Assembly: GCA_964424575.1 (NCBI GenBank)
Contig: CAYRIV010000014.1
Span: 1,214-65,213, forward strand
From: an uncultured Caulobacterales bacterium
Lineage (GTDB): Bacteria > Pseudomonadota > Alphaproteobacteria > Caulobacterales > Maricaulaceae
Direction: 5' to 3'
Length of the DNA stretch: 64,000 bases
Shown here: piece by piece, positions 34,531 through 41,795 of the stretch
Layout of the letters: every line of letters starts with the position of its first letter
How positions within the stretch are numbered: position 1 is the stretch's first letter
Made by a program: the position numbers and the translations under genes
Notes under the pieces: model-generated
Told to the model about the DNA's origin: nothing
Database searches by the model: none
The model's input: only the letters and a program-made list of their open reading frames with translations

Positions 34531-35479
34531 CGCCGCATCTCATTGTTGCGCCTTTAAATATAGACGCGCCTCCGTTTAAAAAATAGCTTGCATCTTTACT
34601 AAAGGCATCGACCAGGAAGTCGAACACGGCGCGAATGCGTGTGCTGCGGCGTAAGTCTTCATGTGCGACAAGGAATAAATCTTCTTGCTGCGAAATATTT
34701 GGCAAGACACGCACAATATTCGATCTATCAAAGCTTCCGCACAGCGGACCGCAAAGCGGGATTGCGCCAATGCCGTAACCGCTCGCAATCGCCGTATCAA
34801 ACGCCCAAATTGAATTTGTCTTAAACGTAATCCGCTCTGGCAAATGCACGGGCAGACCATTATCGCCCATCAACCAGAGCATTTTGTCATCCATGATAGA
34901 GGCGACCACCGCGTCGTGATCTTTGAGATCATCAAGCGTGTCGGGCATACCGCGCCGCGCGACATAATCTTTGCTCGCGAAAAGCCCGAATGTTACTGTG
35001 GCGACTTTGCGTCCAATCAAGCTATTCTGCTCGCCTGGCCCCATCCAACGTAGAGCAATATCAGCCTCGCGCTGCGCGAGATTATAATTGCGAAACCCAA
35101 TCCCCAAATCCACGAGAACGTCAGGATGGCTCGCGCGAAACATTTGCAGCACATCGGGAAGCCACGTTGTCCCGACCCCTTCTGTTGCGGCGAGACGCAC
35201 AACGCCCGCAAGGCTATTTTCAAGCGTGGCCGAACTGCGGTCAATCGCGGCGGCCTCATCTTGCATACGGCGAATGTGATCCAGAATGGAATTGCCAAAA
35301 TTTGTCGGTACAAGCTTGCCCGCCTCTTTGGTCAGAAGCCGCGTTTTAAAATGATCTTCCAGCGCGCGAATACGCCGCCCGACTGTGGGCTGGCTCATCT
35401 TGAGCTTTTTCCCCGCCGCTGTGAGGCTCCCTGTTTCCGCCACAGCGATAAATATTGGATAGTCTGACCAGTTATTCAT
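34445..35479 (-). CDS. LysR-family transcriptional regulator
   Basis: The N-terminal HTH reads FIAVAETGSLTAAGKKLKMSQPTVGRRIRALE. At 344 aa it is about 40 aa longer than usual, and its tail overlaps the 3' end of the convergent gene by 86 nt. Confidence 0.85.
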   Translation of the reverse strand: MNNWSDYPIFIAVAETGSLTAAGKKLKMSQPTVGRRIRALEDHFKTRLLTKEAGKLVPTNFGNSILDHIRRMQDEAAAIDRSSATLENSLAGVVRLAATEGVGTTWLPDVLQMFRASHPDVLVDLGIGFRNYNLAQREADIALRWMGPGEQNSLIGRKVATVTFGLFASKDYVARRGMPDTLDDLKDHDAVVASIMDDKMLWLMGDNGLPVHLPERITFKTNSIWAFDTAIASGYGIGAIPLCGPLCGSFDRSNIVRVLPNISQQEDLFLVAHEDLRRSTRIRAVFDFLVDAFSKDASYFLNGGASIFKGATMRCGVSDDNSDHAHVLASREAHSGRDELSAAE

Positions 35480-35491
35480 GCATTAATGCAT
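35478..35491. promoter_or_regulatory. Perfect 14-bp palindrome ATGCATTAATGCAT overlapping the LysR start codon, a candidate operator
   Basis: Read directly from the sequence. LysR regulators commonly autoregulate through dyad sites at their own 5' end. Confidence 0.3.
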
Positions 35492-35626
35492 AAATATTTC
35501 CAAAAATAAGTCAACACTCTACATTTTAGAACAGTAAATTCGTCCACCCTGCCATATGTGAGTGCCGCCCACGACTTTTAGCCGCTTGCCGCATGACAAA
35601 CGCTATTTTTAGCTCAAATAAAGTCT

Positions 35627-36382
35627 TTAATCCTCAGGGCCGTCCCGCGCGGGCTGACCAGAGCACTCACTAATTGGCGGTGGGTCTGGTGGGCGAGGCG
35701 GCGGCGGATTTCGTCGCTTGAGCAGTGGCCCCATGACATTTGACCCGTCCGTATTTCGGGAATCTTGTGATGCTCGGCTTGGCGCACTCGCGAGGGGCGG
35801 CGTGCGTAAATCAAGCTCCTGTGCGGTCAGGGGAATGGGCTTTATCTTATTTGCCGCGCCTACATGCGTGACACCCGTTGCGAGGCGAAACTCACACGAC
35901 GCAGCGGCACGACGGGAAAGATCTAAAGGCCCGCGCGGAATGGGCGCCAAGCGAAACCATCCGCTGGAATCCGTGCGCGCGCGGCCAGAGGCTTTGCGCG
36001 ACTTGTCTAGGCTCTCTCTATCAAGTGGGCTTTGAGCCGCAGAGCGGGGGACGGGCGCAGAGGGGCGGGGCGGCGTTTTAACGGGACGCAAGAGCTGCGC
36101 CTGCTTATGCAAGCGGCTCCACCGATCAAGCGCCAGATAGCCGCCCAGCTCGCAAATGACTTTCCAGCGCCAGCCATAATCTGCGAGCAAGCGCGACTTC
36201 ATCCGCGCCCGCAACTCCATCTCCGCAATCTCGCGCAGCCCCTTGGCCAGCTTCACCATCTCGCGCCCATATCGTTCCGCAAGCGCCAACCCCTTGGCCG
36301 TGCCTATATCAAGCGCCGAGACGGCCGCGACATAACGCGACAGCATAAGGCGAAGAACAGAGACTGAGCACAGCGACGACAT
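35627..36382 (-). CDS. Hypothetical GC-rich protein: helical N-terminal ~95 aa followed by a Pro/Arg/Ser-rich region
   Basis: 251 aa. Third codon positions are strongly G/C-biased in this frame, whereas the overlapping plus-strand ORFs translate to Arg/Gly/Pro-rich sequence I judge non-coding. I recognise no motif. Confidence 0.45.
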   Translation of the reverse strand: MSSLCSVSVLRLMLSRYVAAVSALDIGTAKGLALAERYGREMVKLAKGLREIAEMELRARMKSRLLADYGWRWKVICELGGYLALDRWSRLHKQAQLLRPVKTPPRPSAPVPRSAAQSPLDRESLDKSRKASGRARTDSSGWFRLAPIPRGPLDLSRRAAASCEFRLATGVTHVGAANKIKPIPLTAQELDLRTPPLASAPSRASQDSRNTDGSNVMGPLLKRRNPPPPRPPDPPPISECSGQPARDGPED

Positions 36383-36422
36383 AAGCGCAGCAAAACACAG
36401 AAATTAAGGGTGGGGATGAAAT

Positions 36423-36431
36423 GGGGGGGGG
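36423..36431. repeat. G9 homopolymer (C9 on the coding strand of the neighbouring genes), flanked by duplicated GGGGATGAA
   Basis: The local sequence is ...tggggatgaaatgggggggggatgaatt.... The tract lies about 41 nt upstream of the ATG at 36382 and about 29 nt downstream of the stop at 36460. Confidence 0.8.
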
Positions 36432-36459
36432 ATGAATTATCCCAAAGAGGCCCCAATGC

Positions 36460-37131
36460 TTATTCGATTAGTTCAAAAGGGCAGATGATTTCATATTCAC
36501 GGTTTTTGGCTTCTATGAGGTTCTCCACAAGGTCACTTAAGTTGAGTACGGCCTGGACCATATCAACTAAGACAAACAAAACAACTGGAGCACCGTTTTG
36601 GTCTTCACCGAATGCTCCTAAACTTTGTCTTAGTTTATCGCGTTTACTGGAATCTCTATGATATTCGTATGCGTTGAGCCAATCCATTACTATTTTGGGA
36701 GAAGTAGGAATGTTTCCTAAATTTCCAAATGTCCTGAACTTGTACATTCGGGTTAGGTCAAATTGATTTTTGATAGCTTCGAGGGTTTTTATGAATGCTG
36801 ACCAGTCTCTAGTCCGCCGTTTCATTAAATTCAGCACTTTATAAAAATAGATTTGTTCACCATTGAGCAAAAAGGGACGAGCGCGATGCAACATGGCTGA
36901 AAGGGCTTCAACATCTACGGGTCTAGCTTTTGTAGTTAATTCTGAATCAGTATTCACATTGACGCTTATGGAACCGCCTTGCCCCTGTTGAACAAACTTA
37001 GAGGCCCGCAGCCTTTCGGCTTCAGCATGGAAAGTTTTCAGCATTGCCCATTCCATGTCTTCGAATTCTATTTGTATATTCTTCCTAAGTGTTTTGCATT
37101 CGCTGACTAGGGCAATCTTAATTATAATCAT
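36460..37131 (-). CDS. Hypothetical protein, 223 aa, downstream partner of the AbiTii-like gene
   Basis: It follows the upstream gene after a 27-nt gap on the same strand. The DNA is AT-rich. There is no TM segment, signal peptide or catalytic motif I recognise. Confidence 0.6.
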   Translation of the reverse strand: MIIIKIALVSECKTLRKNIQIEFEDMEWAMLKTFHAEAERLRASKFVQQGQGGSISVNVNTDSELTTKARPVDVEALSAMLHRARPFLLNGEQIYFYKVLNLMKRRTRDWSAFIKTLEAIKNQFDLTRMYKFRTFGNLGNIPTSPKIVMDWLNAYEYHRDSSKRDKLRQSLGAFGEDQNGAPVVLFVLVDMVQAVLNLSDLVENLIEAKNREYEIICPFELIE

Positions 37132-37158
37132 ATCTGACCCTATTTATTTGATTGGGGC

Positions 37159-38076
37159 TTAGATGGAAATGCCAATAGATGCTGCTAAGCCTGACAATAC
37201 TAACTTAGCCCCATCTGCCAACAGGCTTCCGCTGGCGCCTACAATGGCTTGATTTGCGTCGTTATAGAATTTACTGAGTTTGACTTTTCTTGGAGATGTT
37301 TTTGCTATCTCCATTTCTATATTTTTTAAAGCTTTTGATAGTTTTTTAGCATCAGCACCTGCTTCGATAAGGGCTGGCATTGCCTCATTTAGCTTTACCA
37401 GTCCTTCCTCAATTTCAGATATAATTATTGTTCCAGAGTTTATGTCCCCTGCGACGTTGTTTGATCCTAAAATACCCGTAAAATTCTCGATTTTTATACC
37501 AGTCATAGCTTCCTTTGCATAAATTTTTTCAGTGGAATTAAAGGTCATTCCTTCACCCAGAACACCAGATTTTTCCATTTCAATCGACCAGTCGAGTACC
37601 ATATCTCGAACAGCAGTGAGTATCGAAACCAAGACGCCTCGGTTTATTTGATATGACATTCGTGCCGATTCATAATTTCCTAGTTTGTTTATAATTTCGA
37701 TTAGCCCTATAGGCATTGGAAGGGTTAGCGGTCCACTCGTATGGTTATGGAGTGTGTCTTCTAGGCTGCTGATATTTTGTGTAATACGCGCCGTGCTAAA
37801 CAATTCCATTACATCTTTATTGCCAGAGTATATCGGTATCCAACCATTATATGGATTCCATGCTGTTGGGCTGGCCATAACTATGCGGTATTGAGGTGGT
37901 TCGCTTTTGTATCCGTTCAATTCAGATTCAACCCATTTCTCCAAATCCGGAAGTTGAAGCTTTGCCGCCGCTAATTTCATCCTCCTCAATAAAGTTGCCG
38001 TAGGAACTTCTGTTCCAGAGGCACCTTCTTGAATTTCGTGTATCAAACTAGCCACATTATTCCCTTTGCTTAACAA
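37159..38076 (-). CDS. AbiTii-like (abortive-infection family) domain protein with a coiled-coil and a Gly/Ala/Ser-rich C-terminal tail
   Basis: The N-terminus SLIHEIQEGASGTEVPTATLLRRMKLAAAKLQLPDLEKWVESELNGYKSEPPQYRIV matches my memory of the AbiTii N-terminal domain pattern (...LLRK...LA.KL....L..W...ELNGY....P.YR). The TTG start at 38076 is uncertain; GTG 38055 is possible. Confidence 0.55.
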   Translation of the reverse strand: MLSKGNNVASLIHEIQEGASGTEVPTATLLRRMKLAAAKLQLPDLEKWVESELNGYKSEPPQYRIVMASPTAWNPYNGWIPIYSGNKDVMELFSTARITQNISSLEDTLHNHTSGPLTLPMPIGLIEIINKLGNYESARMSYQINRGVLVSILTAVRDMVLDWSIEMEKSGVLGEGMTFNSTEKIYAKEAMTGIKIENFTGILGSNNVAGDINSGTIIISEIEEGLVKLNEAMPALIEAGADAKKLSKALKNIEMEIAKTSPRKVKLSKFYNDANQAIVGASGSLLADGAKLVLSGLAASIGISI

Positions 38077-38200
38077 ATATGGATTGGTTTGAAGTAAATC
38101 AATAGGTGCACCTTTTTACCTTAATAGTGTCCACTTTACCGCTGCCGTGGACTTAGCCAGCTAAAGTCGATTCACAGAATTGATTTCTAGCTACGCCTTA

Positions 38201-38228
38201 CTCGCCCCTCGCCACTCGCCACTCGCCC
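38201..38228. repeat. Four tandem heptamers CTCGCC[C/A]
   Basis: The array is ctcgccc ctcgcca ctcgcca ctcgccc. It lies about 125 nt upstream of the AbiTii-like ORF and just outside the terminator of the neighbouring gene. Confidence 0.7.
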
Positions 38229-38269
38229 CTAAAAAATCAAAAGTTAAATACACACGGCGCGCGGCTCAT

Positions 38270-38294
38270 AAAAAAGCCACGCTTAAGCGTGGCT
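38270..38294 (-). terminator. Intrinsic terminator of the saccharopine-dehydrogenase-like gene
   Basis: On the minus strand, AGCCACGC-TTAA-GCGTGGCT is followed by TTTTTT. Confidence 0.75.
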
Positions 38295-38335
38295 CTTCAC
38301 TAAAACTCATAAGCCAGTTTCGGCCCAACCCGCCC

Positions 38336-39523
38336 CTAGACCTCAATCTTAAACGTGAGGCCTGCGTGCTCGGTGAGGCGTTTAATCAGTGCGTCGCCCA
38401 TGGCGGGGGCTGTGGTGTAGACGCCGCCTGCTGTTTCGGAGTTGGGCACATCGAGCGCGAGGGTGAGCGCGGCTTCCGTAATCATCTTGGACGTGCTGCC
38501 ATAGCCTGGGTCTTTGTCGCCTGTGACGCCTGCGATAATCTTGTCACCGTTTTTGAGGTCGCCGACAAACATGACATCGTAAAAGCCTGTTTCGCGTTCT
38601 TCCTTGGACGGGCCTTCGCCCGGCTTGGGCGGGTTTTTGGCCATGCTGTCATCTTTCGCGACATATTCGGCGGCCGCCTTGCCTTGCTCGCCCGGACCCG
38701 TCAGCACCATTTCGGAATATTTGAAATCTTTGCCGTAAGCATGATCCATCAACATATTTGAACGGTGGATATTTTTTGTATTAATTGCCGCCATGATGAA
38801 GGGCGCAGACCAACTTTTGAGATCTGGCTCTTCAATCGGTTTGTGACCTGCGGGTTGGGTGACGCCTTGAAAATCAGGTGTGAGGGCAAAAGGGTCTTTG
38901 AGCCATTCGAGCACATGGGGCTCTCGCATGGCGCGGGTCATGCTCTCCTTAAAGCTCGCCGCTGTGCCGCCGCTAAATGTGCCTTTCATCTTGCGCACAC
39001 GTCCGCGCACGGTGTCCACCGCATGGCCTGTGCGGCGCTTGGCTTCTTCTTGAAGGAAATAGACGCCCATATCAAAGGGGATAGAGTCAAAGCCGCAAGA
39101 GAGCACGATGCGCGCGCCGCTCTCTTTGGCTTGGGCGTCAAAGCCGTCAATGATGTCGCGCATCCAAGCGGGCTCTCCGCAGAGGTCAACATAATCTGTG
39201 CCGTTGGCCACGCACGCCCCGACGAGGTCTGTGCCGTAAAGTTGGTAAGGCCCGACGGTGGTCAGCACGACTTTGGTCAGCGATGCCATGGCGGAGAGGC
39301 TGTCGGCGTCAGCGCTATCAGCGACAATGAGCGGGATGTCTTTTGAGATTCCCATCTCGTCGCGTACCGACTCAAGCTTGTCCGCGCTGCGACCCGCCAT
39401 GGCCCATGTGACGTCGCTGCCATATTCTTTCTCAAGATATTCTGCGACGAGGCGGCCCGTAAAGCCTGTCGCCCCGAAGACAATAACATCAAACGCGCGA
39501 TCAGATTTGGGGGTAAGTGACAT
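38336..39523 (-). CDS. Saccharopine dehydrogenase-like NAD(P)-binding oxidoreductase
   Basis: 395 aa. The N-terminal Rossmann motif is FDVIVFGATGFTGRLVAEYL. Confidence 0.8.
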   Translation of the reverse strand: MSLTPKSDRAFDVIVFGATGFTGRLVAEYLEKEYGSDVTWAMAGRSADKLESVRDEMGISKDIPLIVADSADADSLSAMASLTKVVLTTVGPYQLYGTDLVGACVANGTDYVDLCGEPAWMRDIIDGFDAQAKESGARIVLSCGFDSIPFDMGVYFLQEEAKRRTGHAVDTVRGRVRKMKGTFSGGTAASFKESMTRAMREPHVLEWLKDPFALTPDFQGVTQPAGHKPIEEPDLKSWSAPFIMAAINTKNIHRSNMLMDHAYGKDFKYSEMVLTGPGEQGKAAAEYVAKDDSMAKNPPKPGEGPSKEERETGFYDVMFVGDLKNGDKIIAGVTGDKDPGYGSTSKMITEAALTLALDVPNSETAGGVYTTAPAMGDALIKRLTEHAGLTFKIEV

Positions 39524-41138: not shown

Positions 41139-41795
41139 TTAAGACACCCAAAGTGTCTGCCATCCTGCAATTTCCCAATGTTCATTTCTTTTCTCAAACA
41201 AATAGAAGTCCCCACTCCCGCATAATCCGCCACAGTAAAACTCGGCATATATAATCGCTGTTTTGCGATCACGGGAAAACGCGGGTGTTGTAACACCCCA
41301 TTGGGATATAAGCGGTCGATTGTTTATTTTATCAGAAAAATCCTGATTTACTATTTCTTCAGATGAAGCTTCACCAATCTCTGGCTTTGTTTCTAAGCCT
41401 TCGAAACACTCACTAATATTGACCTTAAGGTTGGAAAAATCCTTTGTGAAAAAAGCGGACGTATCAAGTTCGAAGTCTTCCGTGATTTTCTTATCATAGG
41501 TCTGTCCATCTACAATACTTTCTATTGTTTTAACCTCACCAGTATAGCGTTCAAACTTTTTTGGCGGCCTACCATTATTGTATTTATTTGCTTGAATGGT
41601 AATTGGCTTGAAAATATCTCGTACTAAAAATCCATCTCTTTGCTCAACCCTAAAATCATATACTGCAACATAAAGCTGACAGCTATCAATATCAGCAAAT
41701 GGGTGTTCCTTGGGAGATATAAGATTTAAAATTACAGAAAAAACTATCAATAAAATTAGAACGCCTAATGCGGTAACTGTATGTGCAGTTCTCAA
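41139..41795 (-). CDS. Hypothetical AT-rich membrane-anchored protein
   Basis: 218 aa with one N-terminal TM (ALGVLILLIVFSVILNLI). The C-terminus carries FYCGGLCGSGDFYLFEKRNEHWEIAGW. A hand count of one 60-nt line gave 37% G+C. I recognise no family. Confidence 0.5.
   Translation of the reverse strand: MRTAHTVTALGVLILLIVFSVILNLISPKEHPFADIDSCQLYVAVYDFRVEQRDGFLVRDIFKPITIQANKYNNGRPPKKFERYTGEVKTIESIVDGQTYDKKITEDFELDTSAFFTKDFSNLKVNISECFEGLETKPEIGEASSEEIVNQDFSDKINNRPLISQWGVTTPAFSRDRKTAIIYAEFYCGGLCGSGDFYLFEKRNEHWEIAGWQTLWVS

Follow-up and report, generated by a model that had tools for sequence, protein, structure and literature searches.

Background

The AbiT abortive-infection system of lactococci needs two genes; the partner protein AbiTi has an endoribonuclease-like fold, and a 2026 review found no fold match in the PDB for AbiTii (PMC13064643, which covers the work of Bouchard et al. 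2002). Other bacteria have proteins in which the AbiTii domain forms the N-terminus, ahead of a HEPN effector (PMC3710099). The lactococcal AbiU system comprises AbiUi, an AIPR protein, and AbiUii, a predicted HEPN protein that reduces AbiUi activity. Genes embedded in restriction-modification (R-M) systems are often new defences (10.1101/2024.01.29.577857).

Here we describe an AT-rich two-gene cassette acquired by a marine Caulobacterales bacterium and contained in a 64-kb stretch of its DNA (the window). The first gene, A, encodes an AbiTii-domain protein and the second, B, a member of a large family without a name. An earlier note on this DNA had suggested that the two constitute a candidate defence module: the AbiTii protein, the accessory locus and the defence contexts of B relatives agree with this suggestion, but that of a dedicated two-gene system does not stand. 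We give even odds to the reading that the locus arrived by horizontal transfer and is a mini defence cassette, its two modules, each with an evolutionary history of its own, now sharing one probable transcription unit.

The cassette and its insertion site

Both co-directional, minus-strand ORFs proposed previously are present, with a gap of 27 nt between them (Table 1), and the AT-richness attributed to them is clear: the GC content is 0.37-0.44 across positions 36450-38250 versus 0.50-0.65 in the flanks (300-nt windows), and no stretch of equal length in the window is poorer in GC than the cassette (0.403 versus a mean of 0.522, z = -4.2). The block is accessory, because the same site is nearly empty in the two closest relatives (L027 and L028), whose saccharopine dehydrogenase (SDH) sequences are 87% and 83% identical to that of the window; in both, the SDH stop leads directly to the LysR start ~70 nt away, and the site itself holds only a ~49-nt spacer. 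Their SDH-to-LysR interval lacks the cassette, as the accessory locus envisaged earlier would require, and the empty site along with the deviant composition marks an accessory island. Homology to these relatives detected by blastn stops at ~35496 and restarts at 38337, with homology in the spacer extending by eye to ~35527, and no target-site duplication was found at the edges of the insert.

Table 1. Features of the locus, in window coordinates
Feature	Position	Strand	Description	Basis
Inserted block, ~2.8 kb	35530..38336	.	Left edge approximate (35497-35530); absent from closest relatives
ORF C, 251 aa, putative gene	35627..36382	-	62% GC; in insertion, outside cassette
G9 homopolymer	36423..36431	+	Between B and ORF C	Sequence and composition profile
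Gene B	36460..37131	-	223 aa, large unnamed family	ORF list
B motif 2	36643..36681	-	W151-L-N153-A-x-E156-Y-H158-x-D160-x-x-K163	100-member alignment
B motif 1	36856..36891	-	L81-H-R-x-R85-P86-F-L-L89-x-x-E92	100-member alignment
A-B spacer, 27 nt	37132..37158	-	Weak GGG ribosome-binding motif	Sequence
Gene A	37159..38055	-	AbiTii-domain protein, 298 aa from GTG	ORF list
C-terminal helical region of A	37177..37422	-	Residues ~212-293; tail rich in small residues; no known family
Gly/Asn-rich linker of A	37426..37488	-	Predicted disordered; pLDDT ~30, residues 190-210
AbiTii domain of A	37510..38049	-	Residues 10-189 of 305-aa reading	PF18864
A+B cassette, 1,668 nt	36464..38131	-	Leader of ~55-76 nt, A, spacer and B; recurring unit
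Heptamer tandem repeat, ACTCGCC x4	38200..38227	.	5' of A	TRF score 49
Hairpin AGCCACGC-TTAA-GCGTGGCT and T-run	38270..38294	-	Likely SDH gene terminator	Read from sequence

The two-gene block is not, as previously supposed, the whole insert, which is ~2.8 kb long and includes a third ORF, C. This is co-directional with A and B, is richer in GC than any other 756-nt stretch of the window and has no match in Pfam, NCBIfam, PHROG or PADLOC, nor any homologue in plasmids or the fetched loci. None of the three insert ORFs contains an integrase or transposase domain, in keeping with the earlier description, and the G9 tract and heptamer array are likewise as described, the former marking a change in GC content from 40% to 62% and the latter falling outside the region common to the window and the other copies of the cassette (L024-L026, described below). 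The likely right-hand terminator is a hairpin and T-run 3' of the SDH stop, but is not a boundary, as it sits within the inserted DNA. A consensus terminator scan did not list this hairpin among its sites, and gave no terminator-like site in the A-B spacer; the counts from this and a promoter scan were at or below shuffle expectation, hence uninformative.

The lack of an integrase and of a target-site duplication at the locus, and the mosaic nature of the insert, whose unrelated 62% GC ORF suggests a recombination hotspot, would fit a selfish or unrelated accessory element with no role in defence, a reading on which the distribution of B relatives also bears.

Gene A

The identification of A as an AbiTii protein, along with the Pfam accession given for it, was correct: A matches PF18864 in full length, over profile positions 1-186 of 189, with E = 8.6e-43 and a score of 147 bits where the gathering cutoff is 27.6, and it also matches the PADLOC AbiTii model PDLC02334 (E = 8.1e-45). 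The domain is not confined to the first ~60 aa, as had been thought, but spans residues 10-189. The ORF first delimited as 37159..38076 (305 aa) exists, with an in-frame TTG at 38076, but the start is more likely to be the GTG at 38055, which is preceded at 5 nt by an AAGGGA motif and gives the 298 aa length at which homologues have been called.

The AlphaFold2 (AF2) model of residues 1-170 is of mixed helix and strand (pLDDT 80-91). Among 51 homologues, E45, E161 and E176 are invariant, and the family-invariant motif W41..E45-L-x-G-Y49 fits the 'highly conserved glutamate' with which the AbiTii domain has been described (PMC3710099). The domain is followed by a linker with the family consensus IGNFxGNxGxxNxSGDI, and then by a C-terminal region with predicted helices at 212-224, 226-231, 236-250, 257-274 and 278-293 (pLDDT 60-78). 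The only matches of this region in profile searches were sub-threshold and coiled-coil-like, to Exonuc_VII_S; the family alignment has no conserved His or Arg in it, and it has no HEPN match. The model of A had no fold match in the PDB.

Gene B

The partner proved as unrecognisable as originally described, having no Pfam, NCBIfam or PHROG match and only a chance match in PADLOC. A homologue search gave nine close matches, and the family comprises at least 1,443 representative clusters (50% identity) at E<1e-3, 321 of them at E<1e-30. Its members are spread across many bacterial phyla, nearly all in uncultured organisms. The AF2 model of B (pLDDT 87.3, pTM 0.85) had no fold match in the PDB or BFVD; in the fold searches of A and B against the PDB, and of B against BFVD, the best E value was 0.09 and TM scores were <0.3. 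The PDB structures to which B failed to match included the 8VER/YicC chains, and no match to a nuclease or any other family emerged; sequence searches of the PDB with B profiles and three unrecognised neighbours also gave nothing.

Several candidate identities were rejected. The PADLOC match to UzuA (Uzume), at E = 0.023, is attributed to chance because the window copy is the only one of 100 scanned family members to have it. A match to PDC-M32A (E = 3e-5) was similarly restricted to one member of 100, providing no family-level link; no PADLOC-DB v2.0.0 model was matched by more than one of these 100 members, and the window B matched none of 145 PDC models in PADLOC-DB v2. When the B profile was aligned by hhalign to each of two plasmid AbiTii proteins and to the A-family profile, probabilities stayed <1%, so B as a split-off AbiTii C-terminus was rejected, and RptR, the R-M-proximal regulator, is only 79 aa long. 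Nor was there a Pfam HEPN match at E<=1 or a Foldseek PDB match at E<0.1, and neither of the B motifs LHRxRP and EYHxDxxK is the HEPN Rx4-6H.

Across the 100 aligned members, R85 of motif 1 never varies, and conservation reaches 90% or more at L81, P86, L89 and E92, as it does at every named residue of motif 2. The family consists of ~220-aa soluble proteins with a predicted alpha+beta N-terminal part and helical body. The near-invariant polar constellation of R85, E92, N153, E156, Y157, H158, D160 and K163 suggests an enzyme or specific ligand-binding site.

Distribution of the cassette and its genes

The cassette is mobile: it recurs in a different genomic context in L024-L026, at 78% nucleotide identity over 1,657-1,672 nt, with similarity to the window stopping sharply at both ends, and there has a GC content of 0.41 versus 0.55 in the flanks. 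The 27-nt A-B spacing is identical, and the proteins are 71% (A) and 82% (B) identical to those of the window. Values of dN/dS relative to L024 are 0.16 for A and 0.155 for B; both are under purifying selection. In L021, a population variant, gene A is disrupted and B intact, so A appears to be dispensable in at least some cells, although this may also be an assembly artefact.

The conserved two-gene system expected previously was not found: A and B are adjacent only in the window population and L024-L026, and B is present at none of 12 other A-family loci. The ~298-aa AbiTii proteins lacked an adjacent B in all eight other contexts (four metagenome or genome, four plasmid); these surroundings are of mobile or defence character, their neighbours being relaxase/ArdA/Fic, toxin-antitoxin, TIR, Lit and DUF262 genes, as well as an Abi family protein with CBASS, and integrases. 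In most genomes and plasmids, a gene with the architecture of A stands alone as a self-contained unit; a tblastn search of plasmids with A found no Lactococcus plasmid at E<=1e-3.

B-family loci were fetched using the pattern WLNA[YHE][EQ]YH, taken from a nine-sequence alignment, and neighbours were recorded at 68 non-redundant loci, mostly short metagenome contigs, using a crude ORF caller and no matched background. Members recur within or beside R-M genes, in the orders hsdM - B - 18 nt - hsdS (L159 and L160) and B - 16 nt - hsdS (L172), and another lies 3' of hsdR-M-S; the L159, L160 and L172 members are R-M embedded, unlike the window copy, which is preceded by an Abi gene. In a co-diverging lineage B follows Type IIG enzymes, B being 72-89% and the enzyme 59-66% identical. 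The next-closest relative of B with usable context (60% identity) is 8 nt 3' of a full-length AbiU/AIPR gene (PADLOC AbiU, E = 9e-67). Other members adjoin putAbiC and DUF4145-HEPN genes, one lies between ParE-like and TIR genes, one belongs to a plasmid gene run with TIR and HigB, one adjoins an integrase where an integrated element ends, and several have housekeeping genes as neighbours. The median same-strand gap upstream of B-family genes is ~107 nt, most gaps being >100 nt, and upstream neighbours are divergent in 11 of 41 cases, so an autonomous gene fits these data as well as an add-on does. Among 50,697 phage genomes queried with A and the B-family member P0068, rather than the window B, there was no B-family match.

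The check on co-occurrence that had been called for thus went against the pair: neighbours of B vary, and outside the narrow lineage no B locus has an adjacent AbiTii gene, the group of L024 being the only one of the 68 with such an arrangement. A second, unrelated co-occurrence is found at L111, where an AbiTii-type gene in the same co-directional cluster lies two genes from B, in the reverse order. These contexts weigh against the idea of an obligate, AbiT-like system, in which A would be the sensor and B its dedicated effector, only jointly active as for AbiTi and AbiTii. The close spacing with no terminator found between the genes, their joint, sharply bounded movement in which the spacing is kept, the purifying selection on each, the two-gene requirement of AbiT itself and the tight coupling of the 60%-identical relative to another Abi-type gene all agree with it; but the solitary A-family genes, the B-family loci without an adjacent AbiTii gene and the retention of B following loss of A in L021 do not. 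B itself, at 223 aa and with no detectable endoribonuclease or HEPN similarity, also speaks against it, AbiTi being reported to have 127 aa. We regard such an obligate system as fairly unlikely. Since the two genes adjoin in just one lineage, the function of B may not depend on A.

The same variety of partners invites comparison with hyper-promiscuous antitoxin domains and AbiUii: instead of an effector, B could be a modulator or immunity partner, antitoxin-like or dampening toxic defence proteins. The genes found upstream of it are unrelated to one another, a pattern also seen with promiscuous antitoxins, and B is better conserved than its partners, both A (82% versus 71%) and the Type IIG enzymes; the second gene of AbiU lowers activity, and the loss of A with B kept, as in L021, is tolerated. 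However, many B genes are >100 nt from any neighbour or beside housekeeping genes, R-M systems are already supplied with an antidote, the methylase, many genomes and plasmids stably keep an A-family gene but no B, and a 220-aa protein with an enzyme-like invariant constellation would be an unusual antitoxin, making a modulator improbable.

The housekeeping neighbours also bear on the non-defence reading, according to which the defence neighbourhood of B would merely reflect common integration hotspots, and it may be added that the 'AbiTii' label rests on a single lactococcal system. Yet hotspots alone hardly explain why family members are embedded between hsdM and hsdS or lie so close to AbiU and AbiTii genes, while purifying selection on both A and B, and the family size and conserved polar residues of B, argue for a selected biochemical function. 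An element unrelated to defence is likewise improbable.

Discussion

The favoured reading of the locus, as a mini defence cassette of two modules, can be put as a sequence of events. A self-sufficient AbiTii-type gene would have captured B, a portable defence-associated module, and the two are probably co-transcribed. On infection, A would sense a phage product through its AbiTii N-terminal domain, a predicted phage-sensing or interaction domain, and B, possibly by interacting with A, would add or modulate a second activity aimed at either host or phage. B would thereby fill the slot occupied in related systems by predicted RNases, namely AbiTi, AbiUii and fused HEPN domains.

Since its large, unnamed family, for which no fold is known, recurs inside or beside R-M and Abi genes, B is a good candidate for a new anti-phage component. 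B-family genes may be portable add-ons to first-line defences of the type I/IIG R-M, AbiU/AIPR and AbiTii kinds. A bolder version, which we advance tentatively and think less likely than not, holds that the family, which numbers at least 1,400 clusters, is a new, widespread and fold-novel defence component that acts as a second-line plug-in for type I/IIG R-M, AbiU and AbiTii. For example, B could guard first-line systems and fire an enzymatic activity once phage counter-measures disable them, in which case the window would hold a natural AbiTii+B version of the arrangement.

Defence-finding tools count AbiTii-type genes, and the ~298-aa form is described here as a solo mobile unit with a three-part architecture. 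The B family is the more valuable product, being large, nameless and profile-less, without a structural neighbour and recurrent inside or beside R-M and Abi genes. Should it prove to act in defence, it would represent a new protein fold, possibly a new effector chemistry for bacterial immunity, and an example of one module reused behind different front-line systems.

Comparison with known systems

The locus shares with lactococcal AbiT two adjacent, co-directional genes including one AbiTii-domain protein, an AT-rich composition relative to the host, carriage on mobile DNA and the lack of a PDB fold match for AbiTii there or A here. However, A resembles its AbiTii only at the profile level and has an additional Gly/Asn linker and C-terminal helical domain, and the partner lies downstream, is 223 aa long with an unmatched fold and has no detectable similarity to an endoribonuclease; the pairing is lineage-specific rather than family-wide.

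The AbiTii N-terminal domain fusions (Anantharaman et al. 2013), of the c2405- and Ymh-type HEPN kinds, are like A in joining an N-terminal AbiTii domain to a different C-terminal module, and would have in common with it the logic of a sensor domain with a variable effector. The C-terminus of A differs in having no conserved His/Arg and no HEPN match, and the B profile is unlike both A-type C-termini and plasmid AbiTii proteins. Two 50-kb regions of E. coli CFT073, inspected for the c2405 HEPN, gave as candidates a ComEA-family protein and its neighbour, both without AbiTii or B signal.

In lactococcal AbiU, the second-gene position is the one that the 60%-identical B homologue occupies, since 8 nt separate it from the full-length AbiU/AIPR gene upstream; AbiUii is a predicted HEPN protein, whereas B has no HEPN signal and the window no AbiU gene. 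The B family takes the same defining position as the R-M-embedded Abi genes PrrC and RloC and the candidates of Payne et al. 2024, although B is without the ABC-ATPase and anticodon-nuclease domains of PrrC/RloC and, in the window, is attached to an Abi gene instead of an R-M system.

Composition and boundaries of the insertion

The AbiTii-domain gene (A) and the 223-aa partner gene downstream of it (B) are separated by 27 nt of sequence and, as the earlier note had described, lie together on the minus strand within an unusually AT-rich block. In 300-nt windows the GC content is 0.37-0.44 over 36450-38250 and 0.50-0.65 on both sides, and 36464-38131 (1,668 nt) represents the GC minimum for its length in the 64-kb window (0.403 vs a mean of 0.522, sd 0.028, z = -4.2). 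The heptamer array, the G9 tract and the likely terminator of the saccharopine-dehydrogenase-like (SDH) gene, which had been named as the borders of this block, were each found in the sequence. The GTG codon is favoured as the start of A by an AAGGGA motif just upstream and by homologues called at 298 aa.

Features in and around the insertion (window coordinates)
Feature	Position	Strand	Description
Gene A	37159-38076	-	ORF list; likely start GTG at 38055, giving 298 aa
Gene B	36460-37131	-	ORF list
ORF C	35627-36382	-	251 aa; 62% GC, GC maximum of window
G9 tract	36423-36431		
Heptamer array	38200-38227		ACTCGCC x4
Hairpin and T-run	about 38270-38294		3' of SDH stop
Palindrome	35477-35490		overlaps LysR start codon, at left insertion edge
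Second orphan ORF	41139-41795	-	218 aa; AT-rich, 35-41% GC

By its SDH gene the organism belongs with marine members of the Caulobacterales, close to the Hellea/Maricaulaceae group. L027 and L028, its two nearest relatives at species level (SDH 87% and 83% identical), have a LysR gene ~70 nt after SDH with nothing between them, bearing out the proposal that the locus is accessory. Nucleotide homology of the window to the relatives ends at ~35496-35527 and picks up again at 38337, implying an insertion of ~2.8 kb that contains A, B and a co-directional open reading frame, ORF C. As the A/B half has 40% GC and the C half 62%, this insert is a mosaic. The putative ORF C, with a C-terminal half rich in Pro, Arg and Ser, has no homologue in profile libraries, plasmids or any fetched locus. 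A domain scan of the insert detected no integrase, as the earlier note had stated, and no target-site duplication was found. The palindrome ATGCATTAATGCAT is also kept in L028, which has the empty site, and probably acts as a LysR operator or as a promoter element. The second orphan, positioned between strictosidine-synthase-like and glutathione synthetase genes and encoding an N-terminal hydrophobic helix, has no Pfam match and no tblastn match in the relatives' 80 syntenic loci; it looks like another strain-specific insertion.

Gene A and its homologues

The family and accession given for A in the earlier note (AbiTii, PF18864) proved right, with E = 8.6e-43 over residues 10-189 and profile positions 1-186 of 189; the extent did not, the domain being three times longer than the ~60 aa recognised. 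The PADLOC AbiTii model likewise matches (E = 8e-45). Three parts of A were delimited by aligning 51 homologues and by AlphaFold modelling (pLDDT 76.6): an alpha+beta AbiTii domain at residues 1-170 (pLDDT 80-91), with W41, E45, L46, G48, Y49, W156 and E161 invariant, a disordered Gly/Asn linker at 190-210 (pLDDT about 30) and a helical C-terminal region at 212-293 with a tail rich in small residues. A search of the PDB with this model returned no fold match, as a 2026 review reports for lactococcal AbiTii. Anantharaman et al. 2013 place the AbiTii domain at the N-terminus, note its conserved glutamate and report fusions to HEPN effectors in other bacteria; the C-terminus of A carries no HEPN signal. 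A represents a new member of an established family.

No B-like gene neighboured the AbiTii proteins of ~298 aa in four other contexts from metagenomes or genomes. One was a mobilisable element carrying relaxase, ArdA, Fic and Schlafen-like genes, and another an element with relaxase/MobC, toxin-antitoxin and TIR genes; Bosea has a solitary copy between housekeeping genes, and Burkholderia ubonensis one flanked by two integrases. AbiTii-type genes were found by tblastn on 104 plasmids (22 near full-length, all annotated as hypothetical) and in none of 50,697 phage genomes. Of the four plasmid contexts inspected, one held TIR, DUF262 and Lit genes, one had NYN and RelE genes and one was a relaxase region; in the fourth, an 'Abi family protein' directly preceded the gene and CBASS followed it. 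As a B-family HMM found no match in 12 other AbiTii loci, the architecture of A is normally that of a stand-alone gene of defence islands and mobile elements.

The A+B cassette

A diverged copy of both genes with the same 27-nt spacer occurs in L024-L026, three comparison loci, with 71% protein identity for A and 82% for B. Nucleotide similarity of 78% begins at window position 38131, ~55 nt 5' of the in-frame TTG at 38076, and breaks off exactly where B ends, at 36464; the copy has 41% GC against 55% in its flanks, which are unrelated to the window. With dN/dS values between the copies of 0.16 (A) and 0.155 (B), A+B is a discrete, selected and mobile two-gene unit within this lineage. The expectation of a generally conserved pair failed, the pairing being kept in this lineage only. 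An obligate AbiT-like pair, for which the retained spacer speaks and against which the 12 AbiTii loci devoid of B count, is rather doubtful. In L021, from the same population in another sample, 56 nt of A (window 37448-37503) are replaced by 10 nt (L021:7502-7511), splitting A into 189-aa and 73-aa ORFs and leaving B intact; the cause may be genuine loss of A or misassembly. Of the two proteins, B is the better conserved between cassette copies.

The B family

A word-indexed search recovered only nine relatives of B. When 1.84 billion representatives were searched with a profile, 1,443 clusters passed E<1e-3, with 837 of them below 1e-10 and 321 below 1e-30; nearly all are 205-235 aa in length. 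Members with source names are all 'hypothetical', from Dadabacteria, Planctomycetes, Gemmatimonadetes, Sulfurovum and Desulfobacterales. The description of B as unrecognisable holds: there is no Pfam domain in family members, including the few longer ones, no PDB sequence match for B, and no PADLOC model matched by more than one of 100 members. An apparent identity with UzuA was dismissed on that last count as a chance match. The confident AlphaFold model (pLDDT 87.3, pTM 0.85), two N-terminal beta-hairpins with helices followed by an all-helical body, had no Foldseek match in the PDB (best E = 0.15) or BFVD (best E = 0.09). Across the 100 members R85 is invariant, and conservation is 90% or higher at L81, P86, L89, E92, W151, L152, N153, E156, Y157, H158, D160 and K163, a constellation that looks like an active or ligand-binding site and fits none of the HEPN (Rx4-6H), HD and PD-(D/E)XK patterns. 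B is the novel part, from a large family lacking a name, profile or structural neighbour.

Collection of B loci yielded 83, of which 68 were non-redundant, with neighbours taken from simple ORF calling. In 30 of 41 loci the upstream neighbour shares the strand of B, at gaps of 10-474 nt; the median of ~107 nt indicates that most copies are not tightly coupled. Scanned with Pfam and PADLOC, and as raw tallies without a matched control, these 41 neighbours include four Type IIG REase-MTase fusions, one HsdM and one HsdS, along with AbiTii, AIPR, DUF499, a PD-(D/E)XK protein, DUF2513, a reverse transcriptase and scattered housekeeping proteins; downstream are, among others, two HsdS, a CAP12/Pycsar-type TIR, DndB, an HNH protein, an integrase and IS200 transposases. 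A non-defence explanation of the cassette, with housekeeping neighbours on its side and the placement between hsdM and hsdS and tight coupling to AbiU and AbiTii genes against it, seems unlikely.

Most telling are the tightly coupled loci. A 60%-identical B lies 8 nt 3' of a full-length PADLOC AbiU match (E = 9e-67), L159 and L160 have the order hsdM, B, 18 nt, hsdS, and L172 has B, 16 nt, hsdS. Similarly, B follows hsdR-M-S in L003-5, and a Type IIG+B pair is kept across divergence in one lineage (L113, L115, L124 and L142). There, B is 72-89% identical and the adjacent enzyme 59-66%. Other members adjoin putAbiC and DUF4145-HEPN genes, lie at the integrase end of an integrated element, or stand between ParE-like and TIR genes. 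That B is a modulator or antitoxin-like partner, an idea in keeping with its pairing with unrelated upstream genes and less so with its enzyme-like conserved residues, is improbable.

Larger clusters also occur. A co-directional one in L111 (1025-6086) joins a B-family gene to two consecutive 323-aa genes that match no PDB sequence, then to a 308-aa gene of AbiTii type and to 202-aa and 215-aa genes, and is possibly an uncharacterised defence island. Another co-directional run, of small genes, is on the Desulforapulum autotrophicum plasmid pHRM2a (L177:5235-12146), the single plasmid found to carry the family and the one matched both by window B and by P0068, a central family member. Alongside lnu(F), with 99% identity to the reference, this run has genes for TIR, HEAT-repeat and HigB proteins, and it resembles a cassette array or defence island. 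In L006 (3539-6622; also L007 and L008), genes for a 413-aa protein, DUF6946 (258 aa), B and a 155-183-aa protein are tightly spaced (gaps of -10, 30 and 15-30 nt), a candidate multi-gene system containing B. P0068 had no match in phage genomes, and a limited pattern scan of IMG/VR gave two viral-contig loci, L175 and L176; this scarcity disfavours a phage-borne anti-defence role.

Comparison with known systems

The reading preferred here, given about even credence, is that a self-sufficient AbiTii gene would have captured B as a portable, defence-associated module. It is favoured by the solitary occurrence of A elsewhere, by the attachment of B to many unrelated first-line defence genes and by the precedent of a predicted-RNase slot. 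Co-transcription of A and B, interaction of their products, the chemistry of B and anti-phage activity are all putative. A bolder and less probable possibility is that B is a reusable module of second-line defence with a new fold. 'Guilt-by-embedding' is an experimentally supported predictor of defence function, and B is distinct from the 145 candidates of the supporting study, which the PADLOC version searched includes. A predicted RNase stands beside a sensor-like protein in the lactococcal AbiT and AbiU systems and in fused AbiTii-HEPN proteins. Taken whole, the A+B cassette represents a novel version of the two-gene Abi locus.
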